Part shown: positions 10,381-25,922 of the stretch, piece by piece | Layout: each line of letters begins with the position of its first letter | Position numbering within the stretch: the stretch's first letter is position 1 | From: Spirochaetia bacterium | GTDB lineage: Bacteria; Bacillota; Desulfotomaculia; Desulfotomaculales; JAJYZD01 | NCBI GenBank assembly: GCA_035530395.1 | Contig: DATKUX010000180.1 | Coordinates: forward strand, 1-25,922 | Length of the DNA: 25,922 bases | Reading direction: 5' to 3' | Made by a program: the position numbers and the translations under genes | The notes under the pieces: generated by a model | The model's input: only the letters and a program-made list of their open reading frames with translations | Databases searched by the model: none | What the model was told of the DNA's origin: nothing

Positions 10381-10487
10381 CGGGCGCCTGACCGGGCAGG
10401 AAAAGCGACAGCGACCGCGAATCTATGTAGGATCATCTTACCGGACGCCATAGGCGGCCGGAACCCGGCATGAAGGGATAAGTTCTT

Positions 10488-11459
10488 GTGGCAGAGGAGA
10501 AAAAACCCCGGTCCGGTTTGGCCAGGGTGTTTGGTAACTGGTTCGTCAGATATACGGTGTTGCTCGTAGCCATTCTCTTTTCCGGCTACGCCCTGGCCCA
10601 GGCCTATAACTGGGGTAAACCGCCGGCCGGAGAGCCACCGGACATATCGCCCGCAGTCGTGGGAACGGTTTACCAGTCCACGCCTGCGGTCACAGAGACC
10701 GAGACGGATCCCAACCCCGTCGCGGCCAAACCACCGCAGAGACCGGTGCCCCCCGGACCGGCGGCGCCCGTGGTGTGGAGTGTACCCCTAAACCAACGGG
10801 CGGTGTTCATCACCATCGACGACGGCTGGTTCCCCAGCCAGGGAGTTCTGGCCCTGATGCAGCAATACCACCTGCCCGTCACGGCTTTTCTCATTCAGAA
10901 GGCGGCGGCGGAACATGCGGCCTACTGGCAGGAATTTCTTAAAGCGGGGGGGCAGATCGAGGACCACACCTATTCACACCCGTTCCTCACTCGCATTCCC
11001 GAAAGCCAGGACCTGACCCAGATTGCCGACCCGGTCAACTACTTTAAAACTTTGGGAGCATCCCCGGACGAACTGCGTCCGCCCTACGGCGACTACGACG
11101 CGGTTGTGCAGAAGGTAGCGGCCCAAGCCGGTATCAAGTATGTGGTGATGTGGGACGCGGTCATGACCGGCGGCAAACTCACCACTGCAAACGGCCGGCC
11201 CCTGGCCCCCGGCGACATCATCCTCCTGCACTGGGTCCCCGGTCTGGACGGCAACCTGGTCACCCTGCTCCATATGCTGCAGCAGCAGAATCTGGGCGTG
11301 GCCAGCCTGGGCGACGCTCTGGACGGCCGGCCGGTACGGATAACCTGGCTGCACGAAAAAGGGGCGGTGAAGACTCAGTCCCCACCCGCCGCAACGTCGA
11401 CCTCGGTTTATAGTAACGTGTACACCCGGCCACAGCCGGCACCCAAGCCCAAGCCCTGA
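10488..11459 (+). CDS. membrane-anchored polysaccharide deacetylase (NodB homology domain), paralog 2
   Basis: GTG start with a GAAGGGA RBS. It has an N-terminal TM helix (YTVLLVAILFSGYALAQAY), a Pro-rich linker, and NodB motifs TIDDGW, HTYSHP, LRPPYG, IILLHW. The catalytic domain is collinear with paralog 1. Confidence 0.85.
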   Translation: MAEEKKPRSGLARVFGNWFVRYTVLLVAILFSGYALAQAYNWGKPPAGEPPDISPAVVGTVYQSTPAVTETETDPNPVAAKPPQRPVPPGPAAPVVWSVPLNQRAVFITIDDGWFPSQGVLALMQQYHLPVTAFLIQKAAAEHAAYWQEFLKAGGQIEDHTYSHPFLTRIPESQDLTQIADPVNYFKTLGASPDELRPPYGDYDAVVQKVAAQAGIKYVVMWDAVMTGGKLTTANGRPLAPGDIILLHWVPGLDGNLVTLLHMLQQQNLGVASLGDALDGRPVRITWLHEKGAVKTQSPPAATSTSVYSNVYTRPQPAPKPKP

Positions 11460-12035
11460 ACGGCCGTAACCGGTACCTTTTAACGCCGTCAGATATTCCC
11501 CGGCCAGGCGGCGGCCGATTGCAGTGAGCATCCATTCTTCCACCGAGGCGTTCAATCTCTGCCAGTACTCTTTCGGATCCAACCGGAAGCGGATGCTGTC
11601 GACCATGAAACCCTCCGCAGTGAAGCGCCACAGTTTATCGGCGTCCTTGACCAGGGCATCGTTTAGGGATACGGCCGTGAGCCCCGAATCATGGTTCCCG
11701 ACGATAGCCAGGATCTCCTGCCACCAGCGCCCTGGATAGCCGCTCGCGCACAGGATTTCCCTGGCCAAACGCACTCCCTCGACTTCATGAACCCTGTTCA
11801 GCCCTTTGTCCGATCCAGGCCCAAAGGCCTTCAACTGGAGATCCTCGGGCACGCACGACCATCCCACGTCATGCAGGATAACGGCAGGGATGACCACTTC
11901 CGCCTGGCCTCCTTCCTCCGCCAGCAGGGCGCGGGCGAAGTCCAGGGCTATCCCGGTATGCAGGCGGTTGGCCCGGGTGGCGAGGTAGGGCAGGGCCAGC
12001 TCCATAATGCGCGGCCAGAGACTTTCCGCAACCAT
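10974..12035 (-). CDS. HD-domain metal-dependent phosphohydrolase, paralog 1; conserved 192-aa core (11460-12035) plus a 162-codon read-through tail antisense to the deacetylase gene
   Basis: The core is collinear with the 191-aa paralog (H...HD...HD...D: LHT, LHDVGW, NHDSG, KDADKL). At the position of the paralog's TAA stop this copy has TCA (11457-11459), and the frame stays open to 10974. Confidence 0.75.
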   Translation of the reverse strand: MVAESLWPRIMELALPYLATRANRLHTGIALDFARALLAEEGGQAEVVIPAVILHDVGWSCVPEDLQLKAFGPGSDKGLNRVHEVEGVRLAREILCASGYPGRWWQEILAIVGNHDSGLTAVSLNDALVKDADKLWRFTAEGFMVDSIRFRLDPKEYWQRLNASVEEWMLTAIGRRLAGEYLTALKGTGYGRSGLGLGCRLWPGVHVTINRGRRCGGWGLSLHRPFFVQPGYPYRPAVQSVAQAGHAQILLLQHMEQGDQVAVQTGDPVQEDDVAGGQGPAVCSGEFAAGHDRVPHHHILDTGLGRYLLHNRVVVAVGRTQFVRGCSQSFKVVDRVGNLGQVLAFGNASEERV

Positions 12036-12628
12036 TTTAGCCTACCTTCCTGTTACCGGCCGTCACCGGTTTGCTGCAACCGGGCCAGGCACTCGCCGGC
12101 CAGGCGCCGGCCGCTTGGCGTCAGCAGCCACTTTTCCACCCGGGAGTTCAAAGCCCGCCAGTTGCTGGCGGGATCCAACCGGAGGCGGGTGGCGGCAAAG
12201 GCAAAACCATCCTCCGAAAAGCGCCACAGTTTGTCGGCGTCCTTGACCAGGGCATCATTGAGGGACAACGCCGTCCGCCCCGAGTCATGCTGGTCGATGA
12301 TGGCCAGGATGTCCGGCCACCAGGCTTCCGGATAACCGCTTCGGGTCAGGATTTCCCGGGCCAAACGCACGCCCTCCACTTCGTGGATGCGGTTGAGGCC
12401 GCGGTCGGCCTGCGGTCCGAAGGCCTTCAACTGCAGTTCCTCGGGCATGCACGACCAGCCCACGTCATGCAGGGTGACGGCGGGTATGACCACTTCCGGC
12501 CGACCTCCTTCCTCCGCCAGCAGGGTGCGGGCGAAGTCCAGGGCTATCTCGGTATGCCGTTGGTTGCCCCGGGTAGCGAGGTAGGGGAGGGCCAGTTCCA
12601 TAATTCGCGGCCACAGAGTTTCTTCCAT
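11460..12628. repeat. tandem direct duplication of the HD phosphohydrolase gene (two ~576-bp units, 17-bp spacer)
   Basis: The two proteins align without internal gaps, with one extra residue at the paralog-1 N-terminus. By eye the majority of residues are identical. The DNA also shows long identical runs (e.g. GACGCCGACAAACTGTGGCGCTT region). Confidence 0.8.
12053..12628 (-). CDS. HD-domain metal-dependent phosphohydrolase, paralog 2
   Basis: 191 aa with motifs RHTEIAL, LHDVGW, QHDSG, KDADKL. The ATG is 4 nt after the HAD stop. Confidence 0.85.
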   Translation of the reverse strand: MEETLWPRIMELALPYLATRGNQRHTEIALDFARTLLAEEGGRPEVVIPAVTLHDVGWSCMPEELQLKAFGPQADRGLNRIHEVEGVRLAREILTRSGYPEAWWPDILAIIDQHDSGRTALSLNDALVKDADKLWRFSEDGFAFAATRLRLDPASNWRALNSRVEKWLLTPSGRRLAGECLARLQQTGDGR

Positions 12629-12632
12629 CGTC

Positions 12633-13283
12633 TCAGCTCCCAGGCAGGAAATCCTTGAGTTCCAACAGGGAGGACAGCCAATAATCCGGATGGGCGGCCA
12701 GGAGTTCTCCCGTTCCCGTCTCCCCTCCCGCCACTATGGCCACCCTTACCCCGGCGGAGCGGGAGGCCAGGATGTCGGTAATGCTGTCGCCGACGAACAG
12801 CGCTTCGTTTGTACCGGCCTTCAAGCCGGCAAGACATTTCGTTATGCCCTCGCCTTCGGGTTTCATGAGGGTCACATCGTTGCGCGTCAGGAGGAGGGAG
12901 AAATAAGCGCGCAGTCCGAACCGGTCCATGACTTGGGAGACGGCTGCCCGGCCCACGTTGGTCACCAGTCCCGCCGGCACGGCTGTTTCCCGGAGAAACG
13001 TCAGCAATTCACGGGCTCCCGGCCGGGGCGACCAGCGGGTAAGGGCATCGAGATCGTAGCGGTCATAGATGGCCGTCAGACGTTCCCGCCAACCCGGCCG
13101 TATGCCGGGCGACGCCATGGTAACGGCTGTGTTCCACATCCGGGCGTAATTGGCGGCCGGGAAAAGGGAAGCCGGGAAGCCCCACTCCTCCAGGGCTGTT
13201 CTCAGCTCCCTTTCTCCTGCCTGCAAGTTCCACTGAAAGTCGACGAGCGTACCTTCCAGGTCGAATAAGACCGCCTTAATCAT
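12633..13283 (-). CDS. HAD-superfamily hydrolase (subfamily IA-like phosphatase)
   Basis: 216 aa with GGAGGGAAG RBS. Motif I is FDLEGTLVDF (D-x-E variant), with motif II VTN and motif IV GDSITD. Confidence 0.85.
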   Translation of the reverse strand: MIKAVLFDLEGTLVDFQWNLQAGERELRTALEEWGFPASLFPAANYARMWNTAVTMASPGIRPGWRERLTAIYDRYDLDALTRWSPRPGARELLTFLRETAVPAGLVTNVGRAAVSQVMDRFGLRAYFSLLLTRNDVTLMKPEGEGITKCLAGLKAGTNEALFVGDSITDILASRSAGVRVAIVAGGETGTGELLAAHPDYWLSSLLELKDFLPGS

Positions 13284-13318: not shown

Positions 13319-14983
13319 TTAAAGCGACGGGATGCTACTTTCGGCCCGGTCGATCTCTGTTTCCAATTGTTCTCTGAGAACCTTTTTGTTCACCTTGCCG
13401 GAATCACCCACCACCGGCAGGCCGTCGACGACTTCCAGGCGCTCCGGCAGCTTGAAGGAAGCCAGCTTTTTCTCCTGCAGAAACTCCTTTGCTTCGGCAA
13501 GGGTGAAGGTTTGGCCGGGCCTGGGTACGACAAAGGCACAGGCCCGCTCCCCGAGTTCGCGGTCCGGGAAACCGACTACCACCACCAGCTTTATCTTCGG
13601 GTGCTCCTGCAACAGGCCCTCGATCTCCGCCGGGTAAATATTCTGGCCGCCCCGGATGATCATGTCCTTGGTCCGGCCCATGATCCAGAGACATCCCTCA
13701 TCCCATTTCACGGTGTCACCGGTGGTCGTCCAACCTTCGGGGTTGAAAACAGCGGCCGTGCTTTCCGGCTCCCGGTAGTAGCCGGCCGGCGAATGCGGAC
13801 CCCGGAACCAGAGCTGGCCGGGATCGCTTTCCGTAACCTCGTTTCCGTGTTCATCCAGCAGCCGGACGGCATTGCCCGGCAGGGGCCGTCCCACGGTCCT
13901 CCTTCGCAGGTCGGCCGGGTCATCCACCCGGCAGCCGGAGACGGAGCCCACATCCTGGGTGCCGAGGTCACTCGTTATTACGCCGCCCAGGCGCCTTTCC
14001 GCCTCCTGCGCCACATCCGGGGGCAGGTAACCGCCGGCCGAACGGATGAAACGCAACGAGAGGTCGTATTCCTCCACCGGTTGCTCCAGCATGCGGACCA
14101 GATGGGTGGGAACCACCCCGATGCAGGTGGCTTTCTCTTTGGTGATCAGATTGAGCGCTCTTACGGCTGTAAATTCCTCCAGGAGAACGGTCCTGGCCCC
14201 GACCAAAGGGGCCGCGAAGTAGGTGAGCGTGCCGGCGGCCCCGCCGGCGAAAGGGGCGATGGCCGCCGCGGTATCCCCCGGTCCCAGGTTCCAGATATCC
14301 ACCCGGGCCTTGGCCGTGCACAGACGCGGGGCGATGTTCCACTCCACCAGCTTGGGCAGACCGGTCGTGCCGCTGGTGCTGGTCAGAAAGGCCACTTCCC
14401 GGAAGGGATCGAAGCGGCGCTCTTCCAGGATCCGCAGTTTCTCCGCCGCCACCGGATCCCGGGTGAGCTTCATCAGGGAGTAGGTATCCCCGGGGCCTCC
14501 GGACGGCACGTCCTCGCTGAGCAGGAAGGTGTAGCGGAAGTTGGGGGAGAACTTCCTCAGACTCCCGTACATCGCCAGGTAATCGAAATCACGGTAGGTA
14601 TGGGGAATGACGACCGCCGAGACGGCCATCTTCTCCACCATGTAGGATAGTTCTTTCTCCCGCATGTAGGCGTAGACCAACAGGGAGATCAGGCCGGCCC
14701 GTTCGGCGGCCATGCGCGCCAGAAAGGCATACACCTCGTTGGGAGCCTGGATGAGGATGCGGTCGCTCTTCTTTAGACCCATCTCCACCCAGCGGTAGGC
14801 CAGGCGGTCCACCAGATCCCTGGCCTGGGCCCAGGTCAGCCGGTACCGGGAGTCCACCACGGCTTCCTTGTCCGGCATTTCCCGGGCGTTTTGGGCCCAG
14901 AAATCGTAGAACGTTTCGGACGTCCAGTAACCCTTATCCCTGAACTCGTCGATTACTTCGTCTGTGTACCGGATAACTCGCAT
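13319..14983 (-). CDS. aryl-acid--CoA ligase (AMP-forming; EntE/DhbE- and aromatic/alicyclic acid-CoA ligase-like)
   Basis: AMP-binding motif TSTSGTTGLPKL. The N-terminus YTDEVIDEFRDKGYWTSETF resembles aryl-acid adenylating enzymes. C-terminal motifs GDT...RTKDMIIRGGQNIYP and FKLPERLEVVDGLPVVGDSGKVNKK. The ATG at 14983 (GGGGTGGTG RBS, 21 nt after the UbiD stop) is preferred over the TTG at 15001. Confidence 0.85.
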   Translation of the reverse strand: MRVIRYTDEVIDEFRDKGYWTSETFYDFWAQNAREMPDKEAVVDSRYRLTWAQARDLVDRLAYRWVEMGLKKSDRILIQAPNEVYAFLARMAAERAGLISLLVYAYMREKELSYMVEKMAVSAVVIPHTYRDFDYLAMYGSLRKFSPNFRYTFLLSEDVPSGGPGDTYSLMKLTRDPVAAEKLRILEERRFDPFREVAFLTSTSGTTGLPKLVEWNIAPRLCTAKARVDIWNLGPGDTAAAIAPFAGGAAGTLTYFAAPLVGARTVLLEEFTAVRALNLITKEKATCIGVVPTHLVRMLEQPVEEYDLSLRFIRSAGGYLPPDVAQEAERRLGGVITSDLGTQDVGSVSGCRVDDPADLRRRTVGRPLPGNAVRLLDEHGNEVTESDPGQLWFRGPHSPAGYYREPESTAAVFNPEGWTTTGDTVKWDEGCLWIMGRTKDMIIRGGQNIYPAEIEGLLQEHPKIKLVVVVGFPDRELGERACAFVVPRPGQTFTLAEAKEFLQEKKLASFKLPERLEVVDGLPVVGDSGKVNKKVLREQLETEIDRAESSIPSL

Positions 14984-15004
14984 CTGTCCGCACCACCCCA
15001 ACCC

Positions 15005-16423
15005 TTAATCAAGTCCCAACTCACTCCAGCGGGCCCGCACCTTCTTGACTATTTCCTCATCCAGGAAGATTTCGTCCGGTTTGCGGTCCCACTCGTAAGG
15101 AATGGTCGCGTCCATGATGATCTTGGAACCGATGTCCCGCGCCGTGATGGGCAGGGCGGGATCAAGGGGCGTCGAACGGGCCCGCTTGATGATCTCCGTG
15201 CTCCGGTTCGGGTCGTAGCGCACGGCCAGGGCCCACAACACTTTGTCCAGGTCGTCGGCCGGAATGTCCTCGTCGACGATGATGGTACCCTTCATCCCGT
15301 AGTGGCCCGTCGTGGACCCGTGCACCGCCATGCCGACATGCATGGAATGGCCGGGATACATCGTCTTCACGGAGACGATGCTCCAGAACCGGCCGCCCAT
15401 CTGGGGCGGCAGGTAGACCGACTTGATCCCCGGCACGCCCGCCGCCAGCAGGTCGGTCCAGAGAGTGGCCGTCCTGTTCAGGGACTGGATCATGTGGGTA
15501 TCGGTGATCGGCTTGCCCACCGTGGTCGACCAGAAAACGGGCTTCTCACGCCGCCATACCCGCTGCACGTGCAGGACTTGTTTGGGCCATTCCTCGCCGG
15601 TCTTGCCGGAATAGTAGCCGGTGTACTCGCCGAAGGGCCCCTCTTCCCGCAGGTCGTTGGGGTCGATATAACCATCCAGGATGATTTCGGCATGGGCGGG
15701 CAGGGGCAGGCCGCTCACGTCGCTGGTGAAGACCTCCACGGGCTCTCCCCTTAGGGCACCGATGACGTCGTACTCATCGACCTGCTGCTGGATGAAGGTG
15801 CTGGACACCAGGAAGTGCAAGGGATCGCAGCCGATCACGGCCGCGGCGGGCATCAGCTTCCCCGCCTTCTGGTACTGTTTGAAATGGAAGTCGGCATGCT
15901 TGCCCTTGATGATCTGAACTCCCACATGGTTCCTGTCGTGGACCATCATCCGGTACGTTCCCAGGTTGACCCATCCCGTTTCCAAATCGCGGCTGACCAG
16001 GTAGACCGCCGTGCCGATGAACCGGCCGCCATCCTGGGGATAGAAAAAGGGCACGGGAAAATCCCTCAGGACGTCGACGTCGCCTTCGTCGACCACCTTT
16101 TCGCAGACCGGACCGGAATCCACCCGGACGGGTTTGATCAACCCTTTCCGCGTGGTCTCGACCCAGGTTCTGGCCATTTCGCACATGGAATAGTCCGTGG
16201 GCATGCCCAGAGTGATGGCCAGCCTTTTGTCCGTGGTCATGGAGGACGTCAGCACCGGTATGTCATAGCCCTTGACGTTCTCGAAAAGGAGGGCCGGGCC
16301 TTTTTTTTCCTCGTTGAGCTTGGCGATATGCGCGAGTTCAAGGTTCCAGTCCACTTCGGCGGAGATCCTTTTGAGCTCCCCTTCCTGTTCGCACTTATCG
16401 ATCCATTCCCGCATACTTTTCAT
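15005..16423 (-). CDS. UbiD-family (prFMN-dependent) aromatic (de)carboxylase; candidate phenylphosphate/phenol-type carboxylase catalytic subunit
   Basis: ~472 aa. UbiD hallmarks: N-terminus MKSMREWIDKCEQEGELKRI, then WVNLGTYRMMV and GPFGEYTGYYSG. The ATG at 16423 is preceded by an AAGGGGG RBS. The 6-codon extension in the track contains that RBS. Confidence 0.9.
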   Translation of the reverse strand: MKSMREWIDKCEQEGELKRISAEVDWNLELAHIAKLNEEKKGPALLFENVKGYDIPVLTSSMTTDKRLAITLGMPTDYSMCEMARTWVETTRKGLIKPVRVDSGPVCEKVVDEGDVDVLRDFPVPFFYPQDGGRFIGTAVYLVSRDLETGWVNLGTYRMMVHDRNHVGVQIIKGKHADFHFKQYQKAGKLMPAAAVIGCDPLHFLVSSTFIQQQVDEYDVIGALRGEPVEVFTSDVSGLPLPAHAEIILDGYIDPNDLREEGPFGEYTGYYSGKTGEEWPKQVLHVQRVWRREKPVFWSTTVGKPITDTHMIQSLNRTATLWTDLLAAGVPGIKSVYLPPQMGGRFWSIVSVKTMYPGHSMHVGMAVHGSTTGHYGMKGTIIVDEDIPADDLDKVLWALAVRYDPNRSTEIIKRARSTPLDPALPITARDIGSKIIMDATIPYEWDRKPDEIFLDEEIVKKVRARWSELGLD

Positions 16424-16483
16424 GGTTATCCCCCTTACCATTTTGGTTTCATGACTGACGAGCGAAGATTGTTGCAGTGGGAG

Positions 16484-17557
16484 TCAACTCGTAAACAGTT
16501 TTTTCCCTGTCAGCAGGTTGCCGGCGATGAGATCGAGGGCGCTTGCTTTCGGTTGGGATAAAGGGACGTTCGGCTTCTGCGTCCAAACGGTTTCCGGCCG
16601 GGTCTGCACCAGGATGATGTTTTCCGGAAAAGCCAGGTCGGCATCAATGGCCCATTCCATGTCCTGGGGAATACCCCAATGCTTTTCCACCATCTTGCCC
16701 AGTCTGGCCAGGTGGATTATCTCTCCATCGGAGAGACAGGGCGCGTCCCGCCTCTCGGGGGGCACCTCCAGTGACTTCACGTTGCCACCCTCATCGTAGA
16801 CCAGTTCGATGGTCTTGTTACAGATTATCCGTTTGGAGATCTCCAGGGTGACCTTGTCCAGGACATACTTGTCCGGGGTAACCTGCCCGCTGACCAGGCT
16901 CTCTCCCAGGCCCCAACTGCCCTCGATAAAGATCCTGGACCGGTCGCCGTTTACCGGATCGAGGGTGAACATAACGCCGGAGGACTTTGACTTGACCATC
17001 TTGAGCACGGCCACACCGATGGGGGAACTCTCCACACGCATGCCGCGCTGCAAACGGTAGGCCATGGCCCGCCCGGTGAAGGAACTTGCCCATACCTTGA
17101 CCACATGGTCTATTACCTCCCTTTCACCCTTCACATTGAGGAAGGTATCGAACTGTCCGGGCATGCTGACGGGCCCGCTGGAGCGCACGGCGACGTCGGC
17201 CTCGGCCAGGTTGCATTTCTTGGACAGTTCGCGGTAATAGGTGAGAATGGGTTCCTTTATTCCCTCCGGCATGGGGCTTCCTTCAACCAGGTTCCGGATG
17301 TACCGGCTGGCTTCCTCGAAGAGGTTGATATCCTCTTTCAGGCGCTCCACCATAGGATCAAGGTATTCGATGATCATCCGGCCCAAACCGGTTTCCTCGA
17401 CGAACTGCTCGTACGCGTCCAGGGTGACGGCATAACCGGGAGGAACAGGCATACCGGCCCGGATCATCTCGCCCAGGTTGTAGCACTTTTTGCCGGCTGT
17501 TCTATAGTTGTCATTGGCCAGCTGTTCCAGCCAACATACATACGGCTTACCGCTCAT
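16484..17557 (-). CDS. ppsB: phenylphosphate synthase beta-like subunit (PEP synthase/PPDK N-terminal ATP-grasp domain only)
   Basis: 357 aa from the ATG at 17557 (GGGGAGGGG RBS 8 nt upstream). It has nucleotide-binding ATP-grasp motifs (GKKCYNLGEMIRAGMPVPPGYAVT, VAVRSSG) and no swivel-His or PEP-binding domains. Confidence 0.8.
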   Translation of the reverse strand: MSGKPYVCWLEQLANDNYRTAGKKCYNLGEMIRAGMPVPPGYAVTLDAYEQFVEETGLGRMIIEYLDPMVERLKEDINLFEEASRYIRNLVEGSPMPEGIKEPILTYYRELSKKCNLAEADVAVRSSGPVSMPGQFDTFLNVKGEREVIDHVVKVWASSFTGRAMAYRLQRGMRVESSPIGVAVLKMVKSKSSGVMFTLDPVNGDRSRIFIEGSWGLGESLVSGQVTPDKYVLDKVTLEISKRIICNKTIELVYDEGGNVKSLEVPPERRDAPCLSDGEIIHLARLGKMVEKHWGIPQDMEWAIDADLAFPENIILVQTRPETVWTQKPNVPLSQPKASALDLIAGNLLTGKKLFTS

Positions 17558-17706
17558 CCGAAAAACCCCTCCCCAATCTTTTTCTCCAGAGCGAACCGGG
17601 TACCAACCGAGGCGCCAAACCACTGCCCCCTGGAAGAGTGTTGAATTCTTCCGCAGTCTTGATCACTTTGACGGGCCCCCGAACCGCCTTCGGCGGACCG
17701 GCAAAC

Positions 17707-17751
17707 CCCCTTTGTTTATGGAAGCGATGTAGGGGTTGTAAAACAAAGGGG
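17707..17751. other. 11-bp perfect inverted repeat (CCCCTTTGTTT ... AAACAAAGGGG, 23-nt loop) in the 234-nt gap between the channel gene and ppsB
   Basis: Read directly from the sequence. A smaller GC hairpin, CCGCC-TTC-GGCGG, lies just downstream on the minus strand (~17682-17694). Confidence 0.3.
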
Positions 17752-17791
17752 TGCCGGTATGTTTCAACTTGAGGAACCGACGGCCTTTTAG

Positions 17792-18379
17792 CTATTTAAA
17801 AACCGGACGACCAAGTGGCAATATGGGTCTTTCGAAGTGTTCCGCCCACAGTACCGCTGTTGAAGAGTAGATGCAGAACGCAGCGAATAGCAAAAGCAGG
17901 TACCCGGCTATAACGCCTGCGTTGGCTGAGCCACCTAAGATAGAAACCCCTAGTAACAGGAAGGCCACACCAACTTCTGCTATGCCTGCCATAAGCAACC
18001 AGCTTATGCGTCCGAACCCGACCGCATATGTCTCTGTGATAACAAACAACGTAACCCAGAAAACACCCATTACCTCGGGAGTGAACGCCCCTGGCTTCGG
18101 CGCCTGAATCACTTGTTGCCATAATGTAATGGCTGCGCCAAGGGTGATTACCGTGCCGAATACCCCGGATATGGTGCCCAGCAGTAATTCTCCTCTTTTG
18201 AAGAAGATGATACCGGCTAGCAGTTGTGGCAAAGAACATGCCAACAAGATCCCTATCAAGAGGGGGATCGTTGTGGGAGGCACCCATCCCGCGTAAACAG
18301 CCCCTACCGACGCGGTGAGCACAGCCACCGCATTAATAGCCCAGGGAATCTGATTGGCCCACTCTTGTTGTTGAGGCAC
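17792..18379 (-). CDS. GPR1/FUN34/YaaH (AceTr, SatP-like) family membrane channel, divergent member
   Basis: 195 aa with about six hydrophobic helices. GTG start with an AAAGGAGTG RBS. It is collinear with E. coli YaaH/SatP in the core (LPQLLAGIIFFKRGELLLGTISGVFG vs IAQIFAGLLEYKKGNTFGLTAFTSYG) and the C-terminus (FERPILPLG vs FGRTVLPIG). The N-terminal NPAPLGL signature is not conserved. Confidence 0.75.
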   Translation of the reverse strand: MPQQQEWANQIPWAINAVAVLTASVGAVYAGWVPPTTIPLLIGILLACSLPQLLAGIIFFKRGELLLGTISGVFGTVITLGAAITLWQQVIQAPKPGAFTPEVMGVFWVTLFVITETYAVGFGRISWLLMAGIAEVGVAFLLLGVSILGGSANAGVIAGYLLLLFAAFCIYSSTAVLWAEHFERPILPLGRPVFK

Positions 18380-18421
18380 TGTTTATTCACTCCTTTCTAG
18401 TGGCGGACAGTCCGTGCGCCG

Positions 18422-20257
18422 CTAGAGTAACGTGATAACCCCCTGGTTGCCGTCCACCCGGATCAACTGTCCGGTTTTAATGGTCGATGTGGCGAAACCG
18501 GTACCTACTACGGCCGGCAAGCCATACTCCCGGCACACGATGGCCGCATGGGACATGATTCCGCCGACATCCGTGACGCAGGCCCTGATTCTGGTAAAGA
18601 TCGGTGCCCAACTGGGGGAGGTGGTGGCCGCGACCAGAATCTCGCCCTCCTGCAGGGTATTGAGCTCTTCCAAGGTCCGGATCACCTTGGCTTTGCCTTC
18701 CACAACTCCCGCCGACCCGGCGAAGCCGCTTAATTCCTTGACATCCGCGAGGTTCACCTTACCCGCGGAGAGCCACGCGTCCATCGATTTGCTGGTTATC
18801 CCCCACAACATGATCGTGAAGGGTTCGCTTATGGTCTCCGGCGCAACCCCCAGGGCCGGTGGAGGCATGAATTCCCTGAACTTGTTGATGACATCCTTGC
18901 GCCAGGCGATTTCCGGCGGCCAGTAGGACGGCCCGCGGCCTTTGACCCCGGTGGCCCAGGCCGTCAGGAGATCATACAGCGCTTCCTGGATCTCGTAGCG
19001 GTTAAGGTACCAGATGTCCTCCCCATCGGCAAAGAAACCATGATTGACAAAAATCCGGGACAATTCACGGATTTTGTTCCAAAACACACCATGGAACCAG
19101 TGCTCCACGTAGAAATTATGGTTTTCGACATAGGGGAAAACCCTTTGGGCCACGGCAATCAACTGCCGGAAAGTATTCCGGTCATCTTCCGCAGCCAAAA
19201 GGTCCGTATATTCGGCGATGATCCGGTCCCGCTCCAGGCGCACCTGTTCCAACGGGCGGGCCAGGCTTTGCCCTTTTTCCAGTTTCCCGATATAGCTCTG
19301 GATGGCCATGAAAGGTATTTCCAACCGGTCCAGCCAGGAATAGTGGTCATGGTACCACCCGGTCCCCGAAGACAGGTAGAACCACGGGTATTTAGCCTTC
19401 TCCAGTCGGTCCAGCCACTGGCGCCCCGGTTCGGTGGTACCCAGCCGGTCGATGATTTCCTGGGGCCGGGAAGACGACTTGACGATTTCAGCCACGCCGA
19501 GATCGACGGCCGCCTGGGCCAGTTCTTTCAACCTCTCGTCCGGCTGGAACAATATCACGTCGATGCCGGCCACCATCTGGGTAATCGTCCGGTCCTCGAT
19601 GCCGGGGAAAGCCTTGTGGCAGAACTCGGTCAAGGGAAGGTAGGCGGCGTAGCCCAGGTTCAAGAATTCGAAGTGGTACTGCCAGGCCCGCAGCGCACAA
19701 TCGATCAAATGGGTGTAGGTTTTGGTCAACTGGTAACCACTGCTTAAGCCAATGCCCTCAAAAACCAGGGAGCTATCCTCCATCTCGGGAAGGTCTTTGA
19801 TCTCGATATCTTCCAGTTCCTTGATAAGGGCCTCCATTTTCTTCTGCCACTTGGCGTACAACTCATCCCAGTTCTCATAGTAAAAGCCGGCGCGCTCCAA
19901 AAAGTGGGGCAACCTTTCCTGAATCTTCGCCGGATCGGTTACCGGTACCGGGCTGATATAGATATATCCGTTAACGATGCGATGATCTATACCCAAAGCC
20001 GGTGGGATCATGAAAATCCTGCTGTTATACTGTGATAGGGCCATAAACCAGGCTTCATCCCAGATCAGGTCGAAAGGGTACATGGGCTCGGGGTAGTGAA
20101 GCCCGTCGTAATACCAGAGGACACTTTCCTCATAGGCTTTTCTCTCCGGATCATCCTTGCTGACCCGGTAAAAGTACGGATACATCCTTTCCCAGCCCTC
20201 GGTACCGGGAATCGTCTTTACCTCGCTGGGCATGGTGAATGCCCTCTGCTCGGCCAT
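18422..20257 (-). CDS. ppsA: phenylphosphate synthase alpha-like subunit (large N-terminal substrate domain plus C-terminal PEP-utilising mobile His domain)
   Basis: ~611 aa from the ATG at 20257 (AAAGGAGGT RBS 8 nt upstream). The C-terminus GGIMSHAAIVCREYGLPAVVG is the phospho-histidine swivel domain. The N-terminal ~500 aa (GWERMYPYFY...HYPEPMYPFD) matches the PpsA-type architecture rather than full-length PEP synthase. Confidence 0.8.
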   Translation of the reverse strand: MAEQRAFTMPSEVKTIPGTEGWERMYPYFYRVSKDDPERKAYEESVLWYYDGLHYPEPMYPFDLIWDEAWFMALSQYNSRIFMIPPALGIDHRIVNGYIYISPVPVTDPAKIQERLPHFLERAGFYYENWDELYAKWQKKMEALIKELEDIEIKDLPEMEDSSLVFEGIGLSSGYQLTKTYTHLIDCALRAWQYHFEFLNLGYAAYLPLTEFCHKAFPGIEDRTITQMVAGIDVILFQPDERLKELAQAAVDLGVAEIVKSSSRPQEIIDRLGTTEPGRQWLDRLEKAKYPWFYLSSGTGWYHDHYSWLDRLEIPFMAIQSYIGKLEKGQSLARPLEQVRLERDRIIAEYTDLLAAEDDRNTFRQLIAVAQRVFPYVENHNFYVEHWFHGVFWNKIRELSRIFVNHGFFADGEDIWYLNRYEIQEALYDLLTAWATGVKGRGPSYWPPEIAWRKDVINKFREFMPPPALGVAPETISEPFTIMLWGITSKSMDAWLSAGKVNLADVKELSGFAGSAGVVEGKAKVIRTLEELNTLQEGEILVAATTSPSWAPIFTRIRACVTDVGGIMSHAAIVCREYGLPAVVGTGFATSTIKTGQLIRVDGNQGVITLL

Positions 20258-20342
20258 AATCACTTACCTCCTTTGCGTTCAATTTGGGAATCTCCACCGA
20301 ACATGCTAGCCGCCTGCGAAAGGCAGTTCGCTGATTCCTGAT

Positions 20343-22292
20343 CTATTCACCTCCTAAACTGGTTATCAACTTTAAAGCCAACTGTACCTGCAGGTTCGTC
20401 TCCGGATCGTCTAAATCGATGTGGGCGATTTCCCTGATTCTTTTCAGCCGGTATCTCAGGGTGCCCGGGCTCAGGAAGCCTTTCCGCGCCGCTTTGAGGA
20501 TATTGCAATTGTTTTGGTAGTAAAGGTCCAGGGTGGACAGCAGGTGGGATCCGTGTTTTTCCTCGTAGGCCAGCAGCGGGCCGATAACCCGGCCGGCAAA
20601 CTCCTTGAAGGCCTCCCGGTTGATAGAAAGCAGGCTGAAGACACCGAGTTGCTCGTAGGCGAAAGAGCAGTTCCGGCGCCCCAGGGACCGGGCGATTTCC
20701 AGGCAGGCCCGGGCTTCGCGGTAGGAACGGGCGAAATCGGTGACCGTAAAACAGGGCGCGCCTATGCCCAGCCACCAGGTTTCATGAGCCATCTGGACGG
20801 AGAGTTGGTTGGCCAGGTTGTGGAGGACGGTCAAAGACTGGTTGTTTATCTTGTTTGGTTCGGCAGCAGGATCCGGTATCAACATGATGAGATTATTATT
20901 GTATTCAGCGAGAAGGGCGAAGATATGGGCGGATCTTATCGTCCGGTCCACTATTTGCAGCAGGTTCCTGCGGCCGCCCGAAACAGGCGGGGCAGGTCTG
21001 GTGCCCGGATACCTCGCATTGGTCTCCAGAACCACCACGCGGTGAACCTGGGACAAATCCAGTCCAAGCTGCCTTGCCTTCCAAATCACCCCTTCTTCAA
21101 ATTCGTAGCTGCCTTCCATCAATTCCTTCAAAAAGTTTTTCCTGAGTCTAAGTTCGGTTTCAAATGCGGCCTTTTGTTTCAACAAGTCAAGAGCGACTAC
21201 CGTGCTGGTGTGTTCCAGGGCGATATAATCGAGTTCGTTCAATTTGCGCTTACCTTCCAGCGTGGCCACAAAGCCCAGATGATCCTGTCCGGCGATGACC
21301 GGAAGGACTATCAGCTGGTCCTCGTTCCCTTCCGGTGTGGTCCCGTTCAACCGGATGAGACGTTTACCCTGAAAGAGGGACAATATCTCTTCCTTGCGGG
21401 CCGGGTCCGCGCTGGCGTTTTGCCAGGTTGCCCGCAGGTCGGAACCACCGGCGGCCGGCCTTAGGCAGACTGCCAGGGGAAAAAGAGACTGGTCCGTGAC
21501 GATAACGGAATTATCAATTATTTCGGCCAGGCTCCTGGTAATGGCATCGAGACCGTGTCCTTCGAGGACCAGGTTGGTAAGCAGGTTATGGATGGTCATT
21601 GATTTTTGCAGGGCCGCATGCTGGGAAGACAGCACGTTGTTCAGTTTGCGCAATTGGGTCAGGTTATCCTGTAATTTAAGATTGCTCTGCGCGCAAATTC
21701 TGGCGTTGCCGAGGACTGTGGATACCTGGCAACCCAGGAGGTACAGGAAATCCTGGTCGTACCTGGTGAACGGCCTGCCGCCCAGTTTGTCGACGGCCAA
21801 AAGGGCGCCGATATTCCGGCCGGCGAAGGAGAGCGGGACTCCGCAAAGGTTCCGGGCTCTGACGGCCGGGGCTTCGTTCAGTTGGAGCAGCGATGTCTCG
21901 TTCAGGAGGAGCGGGCTGCTCAGTTGCAAAATGTCGGCCAGGGGCCCCCGGGTGACGGCGGCGGAATGCCTTTGCACTTCGTCGTCCCGGCTGTGGTCGT
22001 AGAGAGATAATTCCCGCCCCTCCTCCATCGCCAGAACCAGGTAAGCCTTCTCGGCCTGGAGCAAGGCGCGGGCGTGGCGGACCAACCGATCCGGCAAGTC
22101 CGTGGAATCGACATGGCGGTGGAGATCCATAACGGCCTTATATACGGAGCGCCAGCGAGTCAGCAAATGTCTTTCGGCCACGTCCAGTTTAACCGTTCGG
22201 GCCACCGGTAGATTCTCGGTAATGTGGATCACCCCCCTGTTCCAGTCTTCCGGGGGACCGGTTGACGGCGGCCAAAAAGGACGCCTGCTCAA
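20343..22292 (-). CDS. PucR/CdaR-family transcriptional regulator with N-terminal GAF-like sensor domain
   Basis: C-terminal PucR HTH (LSTLDLYYQNNCNILKAARKGFLSPGTLRYRLKRIREI) and a GAF-like segment (GVPLSFAGRNIGALLAVDK). The start is uncertain: TTG 22292 has no RBS, and the alternatives are GTG 22232 and ATG 22130 (AAGG RBS). Confidence 0.85.
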   Translation of the reverse strand: MSRRPFWPPSTGPPEDWNRGVIHITENLPVARTVKLDVAERHLLTRWRSVYKAVMDLHRHVDSTDLPDRLVRHARALLQAEKAYLVLAMEEGRELSLYDHSRDDEVQRHSAAVTRGPLADILQLSSPLLLNETSLLQLNEAPAVRARNLCGVPLSFAGRNIGALLAVDKLGGRPFTRYDQDFLYLLGCQVSTVLGNARICAQSNLKLQDNLTQLRKLNNVLSSQHAALQKSMTIHNLLTNLVLEGHGLDAITRSLAEIIDNSVIVTDQSLFPLAVCLRPAAGGSDLRATWQNASADPARKEEILSLFQGKRLIRLNGTTPEGNEDQLIVLPVIAGQDHLGFVATLEGKRKLNELDYIALEHTSTVVALDLLKQKAAFETELRLRKNFLKELMEGSYEFEEGVIWKARQLGLDLSQVHRVVVLETNARYPGTRPAPPVSGGRRNLLQIVDRTIRSAHIFALLAEYNNNLIMLIPDPAAEPNKINNQSLTVLHNLANQLSVQMAHETWWLGIGAPCFTVTDFARSYREARACLEIARSLGRRNCSFAYEQLGVFSLLSINREAFKEFAGRVIGPLLAYEEKHGSHLLSTLDLYYQNNCNILKAARKGFLSPGTLRYRLKRIREIAHIDLDDPETNLQVQLALKLITSLGGE

Positions 22293-22795: not shown

Positions 22796-23365
22796 CTAAC
22801 GGCTGTGGTCGCCCCAGCGCCGGAATAGATCATGTTCGATGGCGAATTGATCCAGTATTTTGCCCACCGTCTGATTGACGATGTCGTCAAGGGTGACGGG
22901 CAGGTGATAGAAGGCCGGCATGGGGGGAAGGACGACGGCGCCCAGTTCGGCCACTGCAACCAACAACTTCAAGTGGCCCGCATGCAGGGGGGTCTCCCGG
23001 GGAACAACCACCAGTTTTCTTCTTTCCTTGAGGGTGACATCGGCCGCGCGGACCAGGAGATTGTCGTTGTAAGAGTTGGCAATGGCCGAAACTGTCTTCA
23101 TCGAACAGGGTACAACGACCATTCCGTCCGTCCTGAACGAACCGCTGGCCACCGCAGCCCCGATATCGGAGTTGTCGTAGACGCGGTGGGCCAATCTCCC
23201 TACCTGCTCGACGGAATAGGCGGTTTCCAGCCTGATTGTCCTCCCGGCCGCCTCCGAGACAACCAGGTGAGTCTCGATTTCCGGACAGGCAGAAAGGGTC
23301 TCCAAAAGCCTGATCCCGTATATGGCCCCCGAGGCACCCGATATCCCCACCACAATCCTGGTCAT
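22796..23365 (-). CDS. ubiX: flavin prenyltransferase UbiX (prFMN synthase)
   Basis: 189 aa from the ATG at 23365 (GGGGGTGG RBS). MTRIVVGISGASGAIYGIRLLETL...MVVVPCSMKTVSAIANSY...VVVPRETPLH is the canonical UbiX/Pad1 fold signature. The 98-codon upstream extension in the track is not family-like. Confidence 0.9.
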   Translation of the reverse strand: MTRIVVGISGASGAIYGIRLLETLSACPEIETHLVVSEAAGRTIRLETAYSVEQVGRLAHRVYDNSDIGAAVASGSFRTDGMVVVPCSMKTVSAIANSYNDNLLVRAADVTLKERRKLVVVPRETPLHAGHLKLLVAVAELGAVVLPPMPAFYHLPVTLDDIVNQTVGKILDQFAIEHDLFRRWGDHSR

Positions 23366-23614
23366 GTCGCCACCCCCGCTGATATTGTCCATTGTTCCTG
23401 CCGGGCAAACGCCTAGGTGCTTGGAGAGTCCAACGGGTCGTCCGCTTTGCTTAGGCCCATTGTACAACAGACCCCGGGGGAAAACCATATCCATATGTAG
23501 CAAAAAATGTGAAGAAAAATTGGCTAAATTCGGCCATCCATGGCCGCGGCACATGGCCGGGGGGAAAGGACCAGACATTGCCGGGTGGCAAAGCCGGCCC
23601 GCCTGGTGGGTAGC

Positions 23615-23653
23615 GGGCAAAAAGAAAATCGTCCCGGCGACCGGGACGATTTT
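23615..23653 (-). terminator. Rho-independent terminator after the molybdopterin hydroxylase gene
   Basis: Perfect 13-bp stem AAAATCGTCCCGG-CGA-CCGGGACGATTTT (23625-23653). On the minus strand it is followed by a CTTTTTG U-rich tail. It sits ~100 nt after the stop at 23751. Confidence 0.75.
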
Positions 23654-23750
23654 GGACAAAGTGCCGATGTCGGGATCCGTCAGGCAAGAGGGCTGGCTGG
23701 CAGCGCGGCGGAAAGGTCCCTTTAACGGCGCGGACCTCCTATCCGGATCC

Positions 23751-25922
23751 TCATCCCTCCTGGGCCCGCTTCTCCTTCAGGGCCCGCCAGACCTTCTCAT
23801 AAGACAGCGGCAGGCTGTCCAGCCGGATACCCATGGCGTCGTAAATAGCGTTGGCGTAGCAGCCCATGGTGGGTATGGTGGCACCCTCCCCCACCTCTTT
23901 GACGCCCCACGGACCGGCCGGCTCCGGTTCCTCGCTATAGACCAGGGCCGAGGTTATCCGGGGCATATCCAAAGCCGTCGGCAGACGGTACTCACCCAGG
24001 TTCCCGTTGAGGATTTTGCCCTTATCGTCAAAGATAACCTGTTCCCAAATCGACTCGCCCATACCCATGAAGAGGGCCCCGTGCACCTGGGCGTGCAACA
24101 GCGACGGGTTGATCACCATGCCGCAGTCGTGCACGTCCCAGACTTCGGCCACCTTGATCTCCCCCGTCTCGGCGTCGATCTCCACTTCGCTGATCTGGGT
24201 GGCGAAGCTATAGGCAGGCGAAGTTCCCACCGCCGCTCCCTTGAACTTCCCGCCCAGCTTGGGCGGCGCATAGGAGCCCTTCCCCACCAGCGGACCCCGT
24301 TTGACGAAAAAGGTGCGGGCTACCTCGGCGAAAGTGAACTTGGCCTCGCCGGTCTCCCGGTCGAAAATTACGCCTAAACGGCAGTCGAGACTGGCCGCAT
24401 CCACCGCCAGTAGTTCGGCCGCCATTCCCATCAGCTGGGTCTTCACCTCTTCACCAGCCCGCTTGACGGCCCAGCCGGACATCAGGGTCTGGCGGCTGGC
24501 GTAGGCGCCGAAATCGTGGGGGGCGGTTTCGGTGTCCGCGGACACGATCTTCATGTTGTCATAGGTAAAGCCCATGGCCTCGGCCGCCATCTGACAGAGG
24601 ACGGTGTCACTCCCCTGGCCGATGTCCACCGCCCCGGTATACAGGGTGGCCGAGGTGCCGTCCTCGTTGACCCGGACGACGGCGGAGGCATGAGGTAGAT
24701 CGGTGCGGTAGATGGGATAACCCGCCCCGGAAACGAAGCTGCCCACGGCGACGCCGATGCCGCGGCCCGGCGGCAGGTGGCCCTTCTTTTCGTCCCAGCC
24801 GGACAGTTCGCGCGCCTTTTCTATGCAGGCCGCCATCTCACAGGAATTAACCTGAAAGTCGTTCGGGGTAACGGTATTGGGCCGCCGGGCGTTGACCAGC
24901 CGCAATTGCAGCGGGTCCATCCCCAGGTCCTTCGCTACCATGTCCAGGTGGCACTCCAGGGCGTAGCGGGGTTGCGGAGCCCCGTGGCCGCGCTGGGCGC
25001 CGCAGGCCGGCAGGTTGGTGTAAACACGGTACATATCGAACTTGAAGTTGTCAAACTCATAGGTTAGGGGCAGCATGGCCCCGGCATAGTAGGCGCTGGC
25101 CACGCCCAGACTGGTGTAAGCGCCCCCGTCCATGATGAAGTTGGCGTGCAGGCCCAGGATACGGCCGTCCTTATCCACCCCGGTGGTGACCTCCATGTAC
25201 TGGCGGTGCCGGCCCCGGTTGTGGGCAAACATCTCGTGGCGGTCGTAGAACATGCGGACCGGTCGCCCGGTCAGACGGGCCAGAACCGCCCCGGCAAACT
25301 CCAGGCCGGTTGGTTCCAGCTTGCCGCCGAATCCCCCGCCCACGAAAGGCTTGATTACCCGGACGTCGCCCATCGGCAGTCCGAACTCCCGGGCCAGGTA
25401 ATACTGGAAATAGTGGGGCGACTGGGTGCTGGAGTAGACCGTGAGCTTGCCGTCCTGCCACATGGATATGGCCGAATGGGGTTCGATCGGGCACTGGTAC
25501 GTCCTCTGGCCCACAAAACGGTCGGTGCGTACGTGGTAGGCCCCGGCAAAGGCCTGGTCCACATCGCCGAAGTGCTGGTGGATCTCGGTGTTGATATTCC
25601 TGGGGAACTCGTCGTGGATCTGGGCCGTCTCCTCATTCATGGCCTTTAACGGGTCCAGGACGGTCGGTAGCTCCTCGTATTCCACCTTGATCAACTTAAG
25701 GGCTTTGTAAACGGTCTCCTCGTCCAGGGCGGCCACAGCCGCCACCTTGTCGCCGACGAAGCGAACCTTATCGATGCAAAAGATGTTCTCGTCCCAGCGG
25801 GCCGGACTGATCCCGTATTTCATCTCCGGCACGTCGCGATGGGTAATCACCGCTTTGACCCCGGGCAGCTTCTCGGCCTCGCTGGTGTCGATGCTCAGGA
25901 TACGGGCGTGGGCATGCGGGCT
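23751..25922 (-). CDS. xanthine dehydrogenase/aldehyde oxidase-family molybdopterin-binding large subunit, 5' end beyond the window; candidate 4-hydroxybenzoyl-CoA reductase alpha subunit
   Basis: The frame stays open upstream of the track's GTG start to base 25922 (SPHAHARILSIDTSEAEKLPGVKAVITHRDVP...), which is the normal family N-domain. Other family motifs are VIKPFVGGGFGGK, GAQRGHG, DIGQGSDT and WGVKEVGEG. The Hcr assignment rests on context only. Confidence 0.85.
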   Translation of the reverse strand, partial: SPHAHARILSIDTSEAEKLPGVKAVITHRDVPEMKYGISPARWDENIFCIDKVRFVGDKVAAVAALDEETVYKALKLIKVEYEELPTVLDPLKAMNEETAQIHDEFPRNINTEIHQHFGDVDQAFAGAYHVRTDRFVGQRTYQCPIEPHSAISMWQDGKLTVYSSTQSPHYFQYYLAREFGLPMGDVRVIKPFVGGGFGGKLEPTGLEFAGAVLARLTGRPVRMFYDRHEMFAHNRGRHRQYMEVTTGVDKDGRILGLHANFIMDGGAYTSLGVASAYYAGAMLPLTYEFDNFKFDMYRVYTNLPACGAQRGHGAPQPRYALECHLDMVAKDLGMDPLQLRLVNARRPNTVTPNDFQVNSCEMAACIEKARELSGWDEKKGHLPPGRGIGVAVGSFVSGAGYPIYRTDLPHASAVVRVNEDGTSATLYTGAVDIGQGSDTVLCQMAAEAMGFTYDNMKIVSADTETAPHDFGAYASRQTLMSGWAVKRAGEEVKTQLMGMAAELLAVDAASLDCRLGVIFDRETGEAKFTFAEVARTFFVKRGPLVGKGSYAPPKLGGKFKGAAVGTSPAYSFATQISEVEIDAETGEIKVAEVWDVHDCGMVINPSLLHAQVHGALFMGMGESIWEQVIFDDKGKILNGNLGEYRLPTALDMPRITSALVYSEEPEPAGPWGVKEVGEGATIPTMGCYANAIYDAMGIRLDSLPLSYEKVWRALKEKRAQEG

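Follow-up and report, generated by a model that had tools for sequence, protein, structure and literature searches.

A predicted channel gene between the two phenylphosphate synthase genes

The window analysed here is a stretch of 25,922 nucleotides (nt) comprising positions 1 to 25,922 of contig DATKUX010000180.1 (assembly GCA_035530395.1, deposited as Spirochaetia bacterium and placed by GTDB in the Desulfotomaculales), in which the genes of interest all lie on the minus strand. At 17792..18379 (minus) it carries a gene for a 195-amino-acid (aa) channel protein of AceTr/SatP fold, a member of a clade that we call T1, whose open reading frame (ORF) opens with GTG about 9 nt after a GAAAGGAG Shine-Dalgarno ribosome-binding site. 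Genes for both subunits of phenylphosphate synthase are present, ppsA for the His-carrier subunit and ppsB for the ATP-binding subunit, and their adjacency is broken by the channel gene. An earlier note on this DNA had described a six-helix protein of SatP type placed 42 nt after the ppsA stop and 234 nt before ppsB; the intact ORF, a match to Pfam PF01184 and a SatP-fold model bear out the protein, and both distances proved correct, the second counted to the ppsB ATG at 17557.

The family assignment is narrow at the level of sequence. The protein passes the PF01184 (Gpr1_Fun34_YaaH) profile with 30.6 bits (cut-off 25, E = 3.3e-7, residues 3-180), and in a family search of the whole genome it scored 32.9 bits against 138-171 bits for four canonical AceTr paralogs. 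It failed both NCBIfam equivalogs for acetate uptake (NF007941, 29.9 vs 297 bits; NF038013, 24.8 vs 50 bits). An AlphaFold2 monomer model built on 81 relatives has six helices and a mean predicted local distance difference test score of 88, and its sole Foldseek matches in the PDB at E ≤ 0.001 are the SatP structures 5ys3, 5zug and 5ys8 (TM-score 0.83-0.91, root-mean-square deviation about 2.3 Å, 20% identity). The window channel is, as modelled, a SatP-fold protein and not an orthologue of SatP. The NPAPLGL signature, which had been noted as lacking, is indeed not intact, reading N-Q-I-P-W-A-I with two of seven positions identical, and is better described as degenerate than as missing; the T1 consensus at this site is W-A-N-P-x-P-W-A, with N9 in 80 and P12 in 62 of 81 members.

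A search of 5.8 billion proteins returned 98 relatives of 49-99% identity, almost all metagenomic, and 81 of these make up the T1 alignment and profile. Run against 1.84 billion cluster representatives, the profile gave 282 bits for the single full-length representative of the clade, at most 100 bits for all other full-length proteins and about 40-50 bits for canonical members; the window channel itself scored 332.8 bits and carries all clade motifs. In a tree of 142 AceTr family members, T1 was monophyletic (support 1.0) and fell in a non-canonical part of the family, apart from the canonical paralogs of its own genome. Motifs found throughout the clade are P-Q52, R62-G-E, F74-G-T, E116, E135-V136, C169-x-Y and a C-terminal LPLG-x-P-x-F-K, and the window copy reads W7-A-N9-Q-I-P12-W-A, P51-Q52, R62-G-E64, F74-G-T76 and E116, followed in its C-terminal part by E135-V136, C169-x-Y171 and L187-P-L-G190. 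Five members of the alignment (A1: P0064, P0065, P0072, P0076 and P0097) have a 9-residue insertion (PxGxxGFxT) between helices 5 and 6 together with glutamate at 143 and 162, and three of these five bear a Deltaproteobacteria/Deferrisomatales label or come from a locus of Gram-negative type.

T1 genes adjoin phenylphosphate synthase genes in most loci

Loci carrying T1 were taken from reference genomes, metagenome contigs and exact-protein look-ups and scored by tblastn with the window's proteins, giving 28 informative loci and eight further contigs too short to judge. The pps genes adjoin T1 in 24 of the 28, on 24 distinct contigs including the window, a count that is descriptive and carries no statistical test, the loci being partly related and coming from few projects. 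The pps-linked copies span several phyla and four different gene orders, and T1 carriers are labelled as Bacillota, Dehalococcoidaceae, Thermodesulfobacteriota and Deferrisomatales/'Deltaproteobacteria'; the link to the pathway that the earlier note had drawn from one locus thus extends well beyond it.

The dominant order is a divergent LysR gene, then UbiX, an LpdD-type chaperone, T1, PpsA, PpsB, UbiD, a ligase, a low-molecular-weight phosphatase and UPF0261, and T1 usually ends 21-45 nt before ppsA. The UbiD of a locus of this dominant type is also PpcB-like (616 bits). A Thermodesulfobacteriota type reads T1-PpsA-PpsB-ligase-LysR-UbiD, two contigs have the order PpsA-PpsB-T1, and in one contig T1 is convergent with PpsA-PpsB. 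The PpsA proteins linked to T1 fall into two NCBIfam subfamilies (NF006152 and NF006153). In one metagenome-assembled genome of Gram-negative type (locus L064), a gene for a Phenol_MetA_deg outer-membrane protein (PF13557, 147 bits; 7882-8829) stands directly before T1-ppsA; among the other fetched loci, none was found to have such a partner.

Four informative loci are without pps genes. One (L018) has a divergent Fer2/Mo/FAD operon like that of 4-hydroxybenzoyl-CoA reductase together with a CoA ligase gene, in a second (L007) an alcohol dehydrogenase gene accompanies Hcr-like genes, a third (L006) combines a TetR gene with a BenE gene at 4 kb from T1, and the fourth (L023) has unrelated genes; the ORF downstream of T1 in this last locus was considered as a hidden ppsA and rejected, as it encodes a RecB-like nuclease. 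By gene content, T1 is nearly always encoded in anaerobic phenol/4-hydroxybenzoate clusters and is genetically dedicated to them. We found no paper tying the AceTr/YaaH family to phenylphosphate genes or to aromatic uptake, in keeping with the earlier remark that an aromatic role would be new for this family.

The pore constriction of T1 is changed clade-wide

The narrowest point of SatP is formed by F17, Y72 and L131 (PMC8379382), and smaller residues at the equivalents of F17 and L131 in Ato1 and SatP admit larger substrates (PMC8379382; PMC13515852). Three alignments, namely a HMMER profile against the SatP chains, hhalign against the canonical paralogs of the same genome and a 142-sequence MAFFT alignment, agree that F17 corresponds to V18 in T1, Y72 to F74, L131 to V136, Q50 to Q52 and A164 to C169. 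Among the T1 members, V18 and V136 are each found in 79 of 81, F74 in 81 of 81, and Q52 is invariant. The side chains are therefore smaller at two of the three constriction positions and the tyrosine hydroxyl is gone, so that the residue comparison proposed as a check in the earlier note separates T1 from acetate-type SatP. At the columns of F17, Y72, L131 and A164 the canonical paralogs of the window's genome have F, Y or F, L and A. These four paralogs (L001-L004), all with an F/L/(Y,F) constriction, lie on contigs C124 (1144-3460, three in tandem) and C23 (16037-16573) of that genome (G000).

A second clade shares the aromatic gene context

Another genome of the same order (G070) has a 198-aa AceTr-like gene of 28% identity to T1 that stands last in a cluster comprising UPF0261, UbiD, PpsA, PpsB, Hcr-like genes and UbiX; the protein is labelled as coming from a Desulfallas isolate. 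Its 47 relatives form a clade, T2, which in the 142-member tree is supported at 0.996 and is not the sister of T1. Six of eight T2 loci have an aromatic-cluster context (pps, ppcBDAC(gamma), UbiD-LpdD or Hcr-ligase). These contexts include an operon with the full ppcB-D-A-gamma set and UbiX, accompanied by ppsA and a PucR gene, LpdD-FMN_dh-UbiD-HAD modules of which one adjoins ppsB, a ligase-Hcr cluster and a position between two ppsA-like genes. The remaining two loci have no recognisable context, and in one of these an IS200-type transposase gene lies on either side of T2. The residues of T2 at the four pore columns are L, F, L and M. Since the same linkage recurs in two non-sister clades, function is favoured over shared history as its explanation.

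A dispensable gene in a derived position

The ppsA-channel-ppsB order, whose conservation the earlier note had left to be checked, turned out not to be conserved: we found it only in the window, in the closest T1 copy outside the window's own cluster (L019, a 1.8-kb metagenome contig) and, as a relic, in a genome of the same genus (G001), and the usual order has the channel before ppsA. The nearest relative with long context (G069, locus L010) reads PucR, a broken IS200-type transposase gene, T1, PpsA, PpsB; its T1 is 77% identical to the window's, and PpsA, PpsB, UbiD and ligase are 73-81% identical. The L019 copy, 86% identical and in the same PpsA-T1-PpsB order as the window, has TAG at codon 108, the site of the near-invariant W108, which may be an error, being a single base in one short metagenome contig.

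G001, whose PpsA is 87% identical, reads PucR-PpsA-PpsB and has no intact channel gene. Its ppsA-ppsB spacer is collinear with the window and holds, in order, the ppsA end, a 70-nt channel block corresponding to codons 50-73 (E = 5e-10 by blastn and 1e-4 by tblastn), 100 nt that match the 234-nt spacer and the ppsB start, the channel relic amounting to about 70-110 nt overall. Because L019 shares the order and G001 keeps these collinear remnants, the arrangement predates the split of the window, L019 and G001, and the channel gene was, on the evidence of this relic, deleted later in G001. In a genome of the sister genus of G069 (G078), the leader that precedes T1 in G069 is kept, and both the channel gene and the insertion sequence are absent. 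A search of 100 same-order relatives found T1 in G069 alone and close PpsA homologues in G001, G069, G078 and G070; of 400 genomes sampled across the phylum, the window's own was the only one in which T1 turned up. As close relatives keep the enzymes and have lost the channel, the channel is, judging from these genomes, accessory to the pathway.

The base composition of the gene sets it apart from its surroundings. Its total GC content of 0.524 is the lowest of the string (ppsA 0.558, PucR 0.567, ppsB 0.570, ubiD 0.601, ligase 0.623), as is its GC content at third codon positions (GC3; 0.55 vs 0.69-0.82 in the neighbours). The earlier statement that the channel is more AT-rich than the downstream genes is therefore correct; the grouping that came with it, which likened the channel to ppsA and the PucR gene, does not hold, as ppsB groups with ppsA and the GC3 of the channel is far below that of every neighbour. 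A low GC3 relative to the neighbours is also seen elsewhere, in L010 (0.53 vs 0.66-0.71), L012 (0.49 vs 0.51-0.59) and L019 (0.66 vs 0.77), and we therefore regard it as a trait intrinsic to the gene and no sign of recent import. Read across these loci, the ppsA-channel-ppsB position is a genus-level relocation from the widespread channel-ppsA-ppsB order and not a foreign insertion. Of the suggestion that a later insertion had split ppsA from ppsB, the derived position stands and the insertion does not, the gene having diverged like its neighbours and its low GC3 being intrinsic.

The ratio of nonsynonymous to synonymous substitution rates (dN/dS) between the window channel and the G069 copy is 0.15, and of 74 near-invariant columns the window copy departs from three, each time by a conservative change (clade median 2), so that it looks functional as far as its sequence can tell.

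Transposase genes of IS200/IS605 type (Y1) adjoin channel genes in three loci: a frameshifted copy lies between the PucR gene and T1 (L010:7160-7598, minus), two identical copies flank a T2 gene (L060:1946-2803 and 10021-10878), and one lies just upstream of T2 (L062:7757-8557). Such transposases may help to move channel genes between or within clusters.

Spacers and the surrounding cluster

The 42-nt ppsA-channel spacer (18380..18421, minus) holds the ribosome-binding site of the channel gene. The 234-nt channel-ppsB spacer (17558..17791, minus) contains an 11-bp inverted repeat and a GC hairpin and lacks a T-tract terminator, and its folding is close to that of shuffled sequence (z = 0.62), so that the spacer as a whole is not specially structured. 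A promoter and terminator scan of 16300-20500 gave nothing beyond what shuffled sequence would be expected to give and showed no terminator in the two spacers, and an Rfam scan of 16000-21000 (E ≤ 1) gave a single chance-level small-RNA match on the opposite strand inside ubiD. As terminator-like sites are missing from both spacers and the longer one folds no better than shuffled sequence, co-transcription of the channel with ppsA and ppsB is plausible from the sequence. Within 17672-17767 of the longer spacer, the 3' arm of the inverted repeat and the adjoining GCCGGTC are kept in G001 and L019, in G001 despite the deletion of the channel gene; the spacer may thus hold a small conserved element, for example a processing or regulatory site for ppsB. 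A sigma-54-like TGGCAT-N5-TTGC at 18229-18243 (minus), pointed out in the earlier note, falls in the codons for a conserved L-A-C-S-L-P-Q, where L019 has TGGCCT-N5-CTGC; constraint on the coding sequence may be enough to account for the match.

The length of the longer spacer depends on the ppsB start. The mechanically called ORF opens at GTG 17623, whereas ATG 17557 and its GGGGAGG ribosome-binding site align with L019 and give the 357-aa length of the relatives' PpsB. The 22-codon GTG-17623 extension is probably untranslated, and with the start at ATG 17557 the gap is therefore 234 nt.

In the order of transcription, the cluster includes a Mo-enzyme large subunit of the xanthine-dehydrogenase family like the 4-hydroxybenzoyl-CoA reductase alpha subunit (23751..25850, minus), a UbiX flavin prenyltransferase, which makes the UbiD cofactor (22796..23659, minus), and, directly upstream of ppsA, a PucR-family regulator with GAF domains (20343..22292, minus). 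In G001 the Fer2 and FAD subunit genes come upstream of the corresponding Mo-subunit gene, and the same PucR/GAF type of regulator heads the cluster in G001, G069 and G078. The ppsA-like gene (18422..20263, minus) encodes 613 aa with a C-terminal PEP-utilizers mobile domain (NF006152, 914 bits, cut-off 723), and the ppsB-like gene (16484..17557, minus) encodes 357 aa with a PPDK_N ATP-binding domain (313 bits). Downstream of these follow a UbiD-family carboxylase matching phenylphosphate carboxylase beta (15005..16441, minus; TIGR02724, 582 bits, cut-off 469), an AMP-forming aryl-acid CoA ligase (13319..15001, minus) and, in the 10974-13283 region (minus), a HAD hydrolase and two HD hydrolases that end the operon. 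No ppsC-like gene after ppsB appeared in a Pfam scan covering the string's next six genes; ubiD comes directly next. In the ppsABC operon of Thauera aromatica, ppsA and ppsB are neighbours and ppsC comes after them. The operon tail is the most variable part when the window is compared with L010, L012, L014, L024, L028, L032 and L037: most other lineages have a low-molecular-weight phosphatase plus UPF0261, or UPF0261 plus HAD, and the window's genus has HAD plus HD.

A candidate facilitator for phenol or 4-hydroxybenzoate

The explanation that we favour, and to which we give roughly an even chance, is that T1 acts as an accessory channel in the inner membrane through which phenol and/or 4-hydroxybenzoate would pass; the two solutes are handled as one joint hypothesis, and the estimate applies to both together. 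T1 would form a hexamer with one pore per monomer, its central hydrophobic constriction widened and without the tyrosine hydroxyl (V18/F74/V136 in place of SatP F17/Y72/L131). Through this pore the phenolic substrate of the pathway, be it phenol, 4-hydroxybenzoate or both, would cross the cytoplasmic membrane by facilitated diffusion, and uptake would be made irreversible either by PpsAB, which would phosphorylate phenol, or by the CoA ligase, which would thioesterify 4-hydroxybenzoate. The logic would be that of the glycerol facilitator and glycerol kinase. Phenol as the substrate fits the usual place of T1 right before ppsA and the outer-membrane partner in L064, and 4-hydroxybenzoate fits the carboxylate chemistry of the family and is the one solute that all three types of context share. 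The dispensability of the channel is consistent with facilitation of a solute that can also pass membranes on its own. A further-reaching proposal, which we put forward tentatively and rate as possible at most, is that T1 proteins are the first AceTr channels specialised for aromatic compounds, with a naturally widened, hydroxyl-free V/F/V pore that passes phenol and a phenylphosphate synthase that traps it, a facilitator-kinase pair for phenol uptake by anaerobes comparable to GlpF-GlpK, and that T2 came to the same job independently.

Several points weigh against the facilitator reading. At neutral pH phenol carries no charge and passes through bilayers on its own, so that it is not obvious why a channel would be needed. 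The channel has decayed or been lost in G001, L019 and G078 with the enzymes intact and is thus not essential to the pathway, and many of the T1 loci lack independence, as they derive from a small number of related sediment metagenomes. E116 (helix 4) and E135 (helix 5), near-invariant in T1, have no counterpart in SatP and are both absent from T2, and the proposed mechanism does not account for them. Finally, the characterised AceTr members all conduct small aliphatic carboxylates (PMC8379382; PMC13515852).

This last point leads to the strongest alternative, in which T1 is a small-anion channel with SatP-like chemistry that exports acetate from benzoyl-CoA breakdown or admits bicarbonate or formate for carboxylation or redox purposes. 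The family fold, the invariant Q52 (SatP Q50), the conserved R62 and the C-terminal LPLG speak for it, as do the small carboxylates carried by all characterised members (PMC8379382; PMC13515852) and the CO2 requirement of the carboxylase. We nevertheless consider it unlikely, since four canonical paralogs of F/L/Y type are already available for acetate in this genome and the whole clade has exchanged two of its three constriction residues. Moreover, a bicarbonate supply does not explain the Hcr-ligase loci without a carboxylase, CO2 needs no channel, and the Phenol_MetA_deg partner points to uptake of external aromatic compounds.

Alternatively, T1 might be an export valve for aromatic acids such as 4-hydroxybenzoate or benzoate, which would relieve their build-up when carboxylation outruns CoA ligation, or would release benzoate in organisms that turn phenol into it. 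This possibility draws on the same gene context as the facilitator and on aromatic monocarboxylates that occur within the pathway; SatP-type channels conduct anions down a gradient (PMC8379382), and some Desulfotomaculales relatives turn phenol or 4-hydroxybenzoate into benzoate (PMC5946492). Substrate entry is the better fit, however, to a channel that is usually first in the operon, directly before ppsA, and that in one locus is paired with an outer-membrane protein of uptake type, and the loss of an ATP-costly intermediate would be wasteful, which makes an export role rather improbable in our judgement.

Still less probable is that the gene is a passenger under fading selection in the window's genus, or has a role other than transport, such as a membrane anchor for an enzyme. 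The relic of about 70-110 nt in G001, the TAG codon in L019, the loss in G078 and the low GC3 could be read in this way. Set against them are a window copy of full length with all invariant residues and only ordinary deviations (3 of 74 against a median of 2), the dN/dS of 0.15 and a low GC3 that intact copies of other lineages share, and the L019 stop is one base in one 1.8-kb contig and possibly an error. Recent foreign insertion into a once-adjacent ppsA-ppsB pair, for which one might cite the lowest GC and GC3 of the string, an order that departs from the usual and the IS200-type transposases beside channel genes in L010, L060 and L062, was rejected as extremely improbable, given a 77% identity to G069 that matches the 73-81% of the flanking genes, a position common to L019 and the G001 relic and hence older than the genus split, a low GC3 that recurs in L010, L012 and L019, and the lack of any repeat or transposase scar flanking the gene.

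Significance and comparison with known systems

Anaerobic phenol degradation has been described as starting with cytoplasmic enzymes, the entry of the substrate being assumed to be passive. If T1 is a facilitator for phenolic substrates, a dedicated, conserved yet dispensable channel would supply the missing first step, could account for strain-to-strain differences in affinity when phenol is scarce and would offer a marker gene for such clusters in metagenomes. It would also extend the substrate range of AceTr proteins from C1-C4 aliphatic acids to aromatic compounds and amount to a natural test of whether constriction size sets specificity.

The cluster resembles the pps-ppc clusters of Thauera aromatica/Aromatoleum, Geobacter metallireducens and Desulfatiglans anilini in its ppsA/ppsB-like genes, PpcB-type UbiD, UbiX, 4-hydroxybenzoate-type CoA ligase and Hcr-like genes, and it is like those of G. 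metallireducens and D. anilini (PMC6114531) in having a single PpcB homologue and no PpcC. It differs from them in its PucR/GAF regulator and in the HAD and two HD hydrolase genes that close the operon. The literature on phenol clusters that we found, including that on D. anilini (PMC6114531), and recent papers on benzene name no channel or transporter gene.

T1 shares with SatP/YaaH of E. coli and Citrobacter koseri (5ZUG, 5YS3, 5YS8) the six-helix fold, a length of about 190 aa, the conserved N8, Q50, G73 and Y166, a C-terminal LP(I/L)G and, in the loop that follows helix 2, a basic residue. Unlike SatP, to which it is about 20% identical, it has a degenerate NPAPLGL, a V/F/V constriction, cysteine for A164 and the additional E116 and E135, and it is encoded in phenol-pathway operons and not alone. 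Its V18 and V136 are natural counterparts, at the same positions, of the engineered changes F98A and L219A/V/S/G in yeast Ato1 (Ady2) and L131A/V in SatP. Shrinking the side chains at these two positions widens the pore and admits lactate and succinate (PMC8379382; PMC13515852). These variants, in contrast to T1, were made in the laboratory and were assayed with aliphatic acids only, and since the Ato1 double mutant F98A/L219A lost activity, the doubly reduced constriction of T1 must be compensated elsewhere in the protein. To our knowledge, no aromatic substrate has been assayed in the AceTr family.

In its proposed role of bringing 4-hydroxybenzoate or benzoate to a CoA ligase, T1 would be comparable to PcaK, of the major facilitator superfamily, and to BenE, although these are secondary carriers of at least 400 aa with an unrelated fold and mechanism, whereas T1 is a 195-aa channel subunit. 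A functional analogy may be drawn with GlpF and GlpK, in which a channel for a small, partly membrane-permeant solute is encoded beside a kinase that traps the solute as its phosphate ester, and in which the channel is dispensable at high substrate; T1 and the phenylphosphate synthase would be arranged in the same way, with a channel whose fold is unrelated to the aquaporin fold of GlpF.

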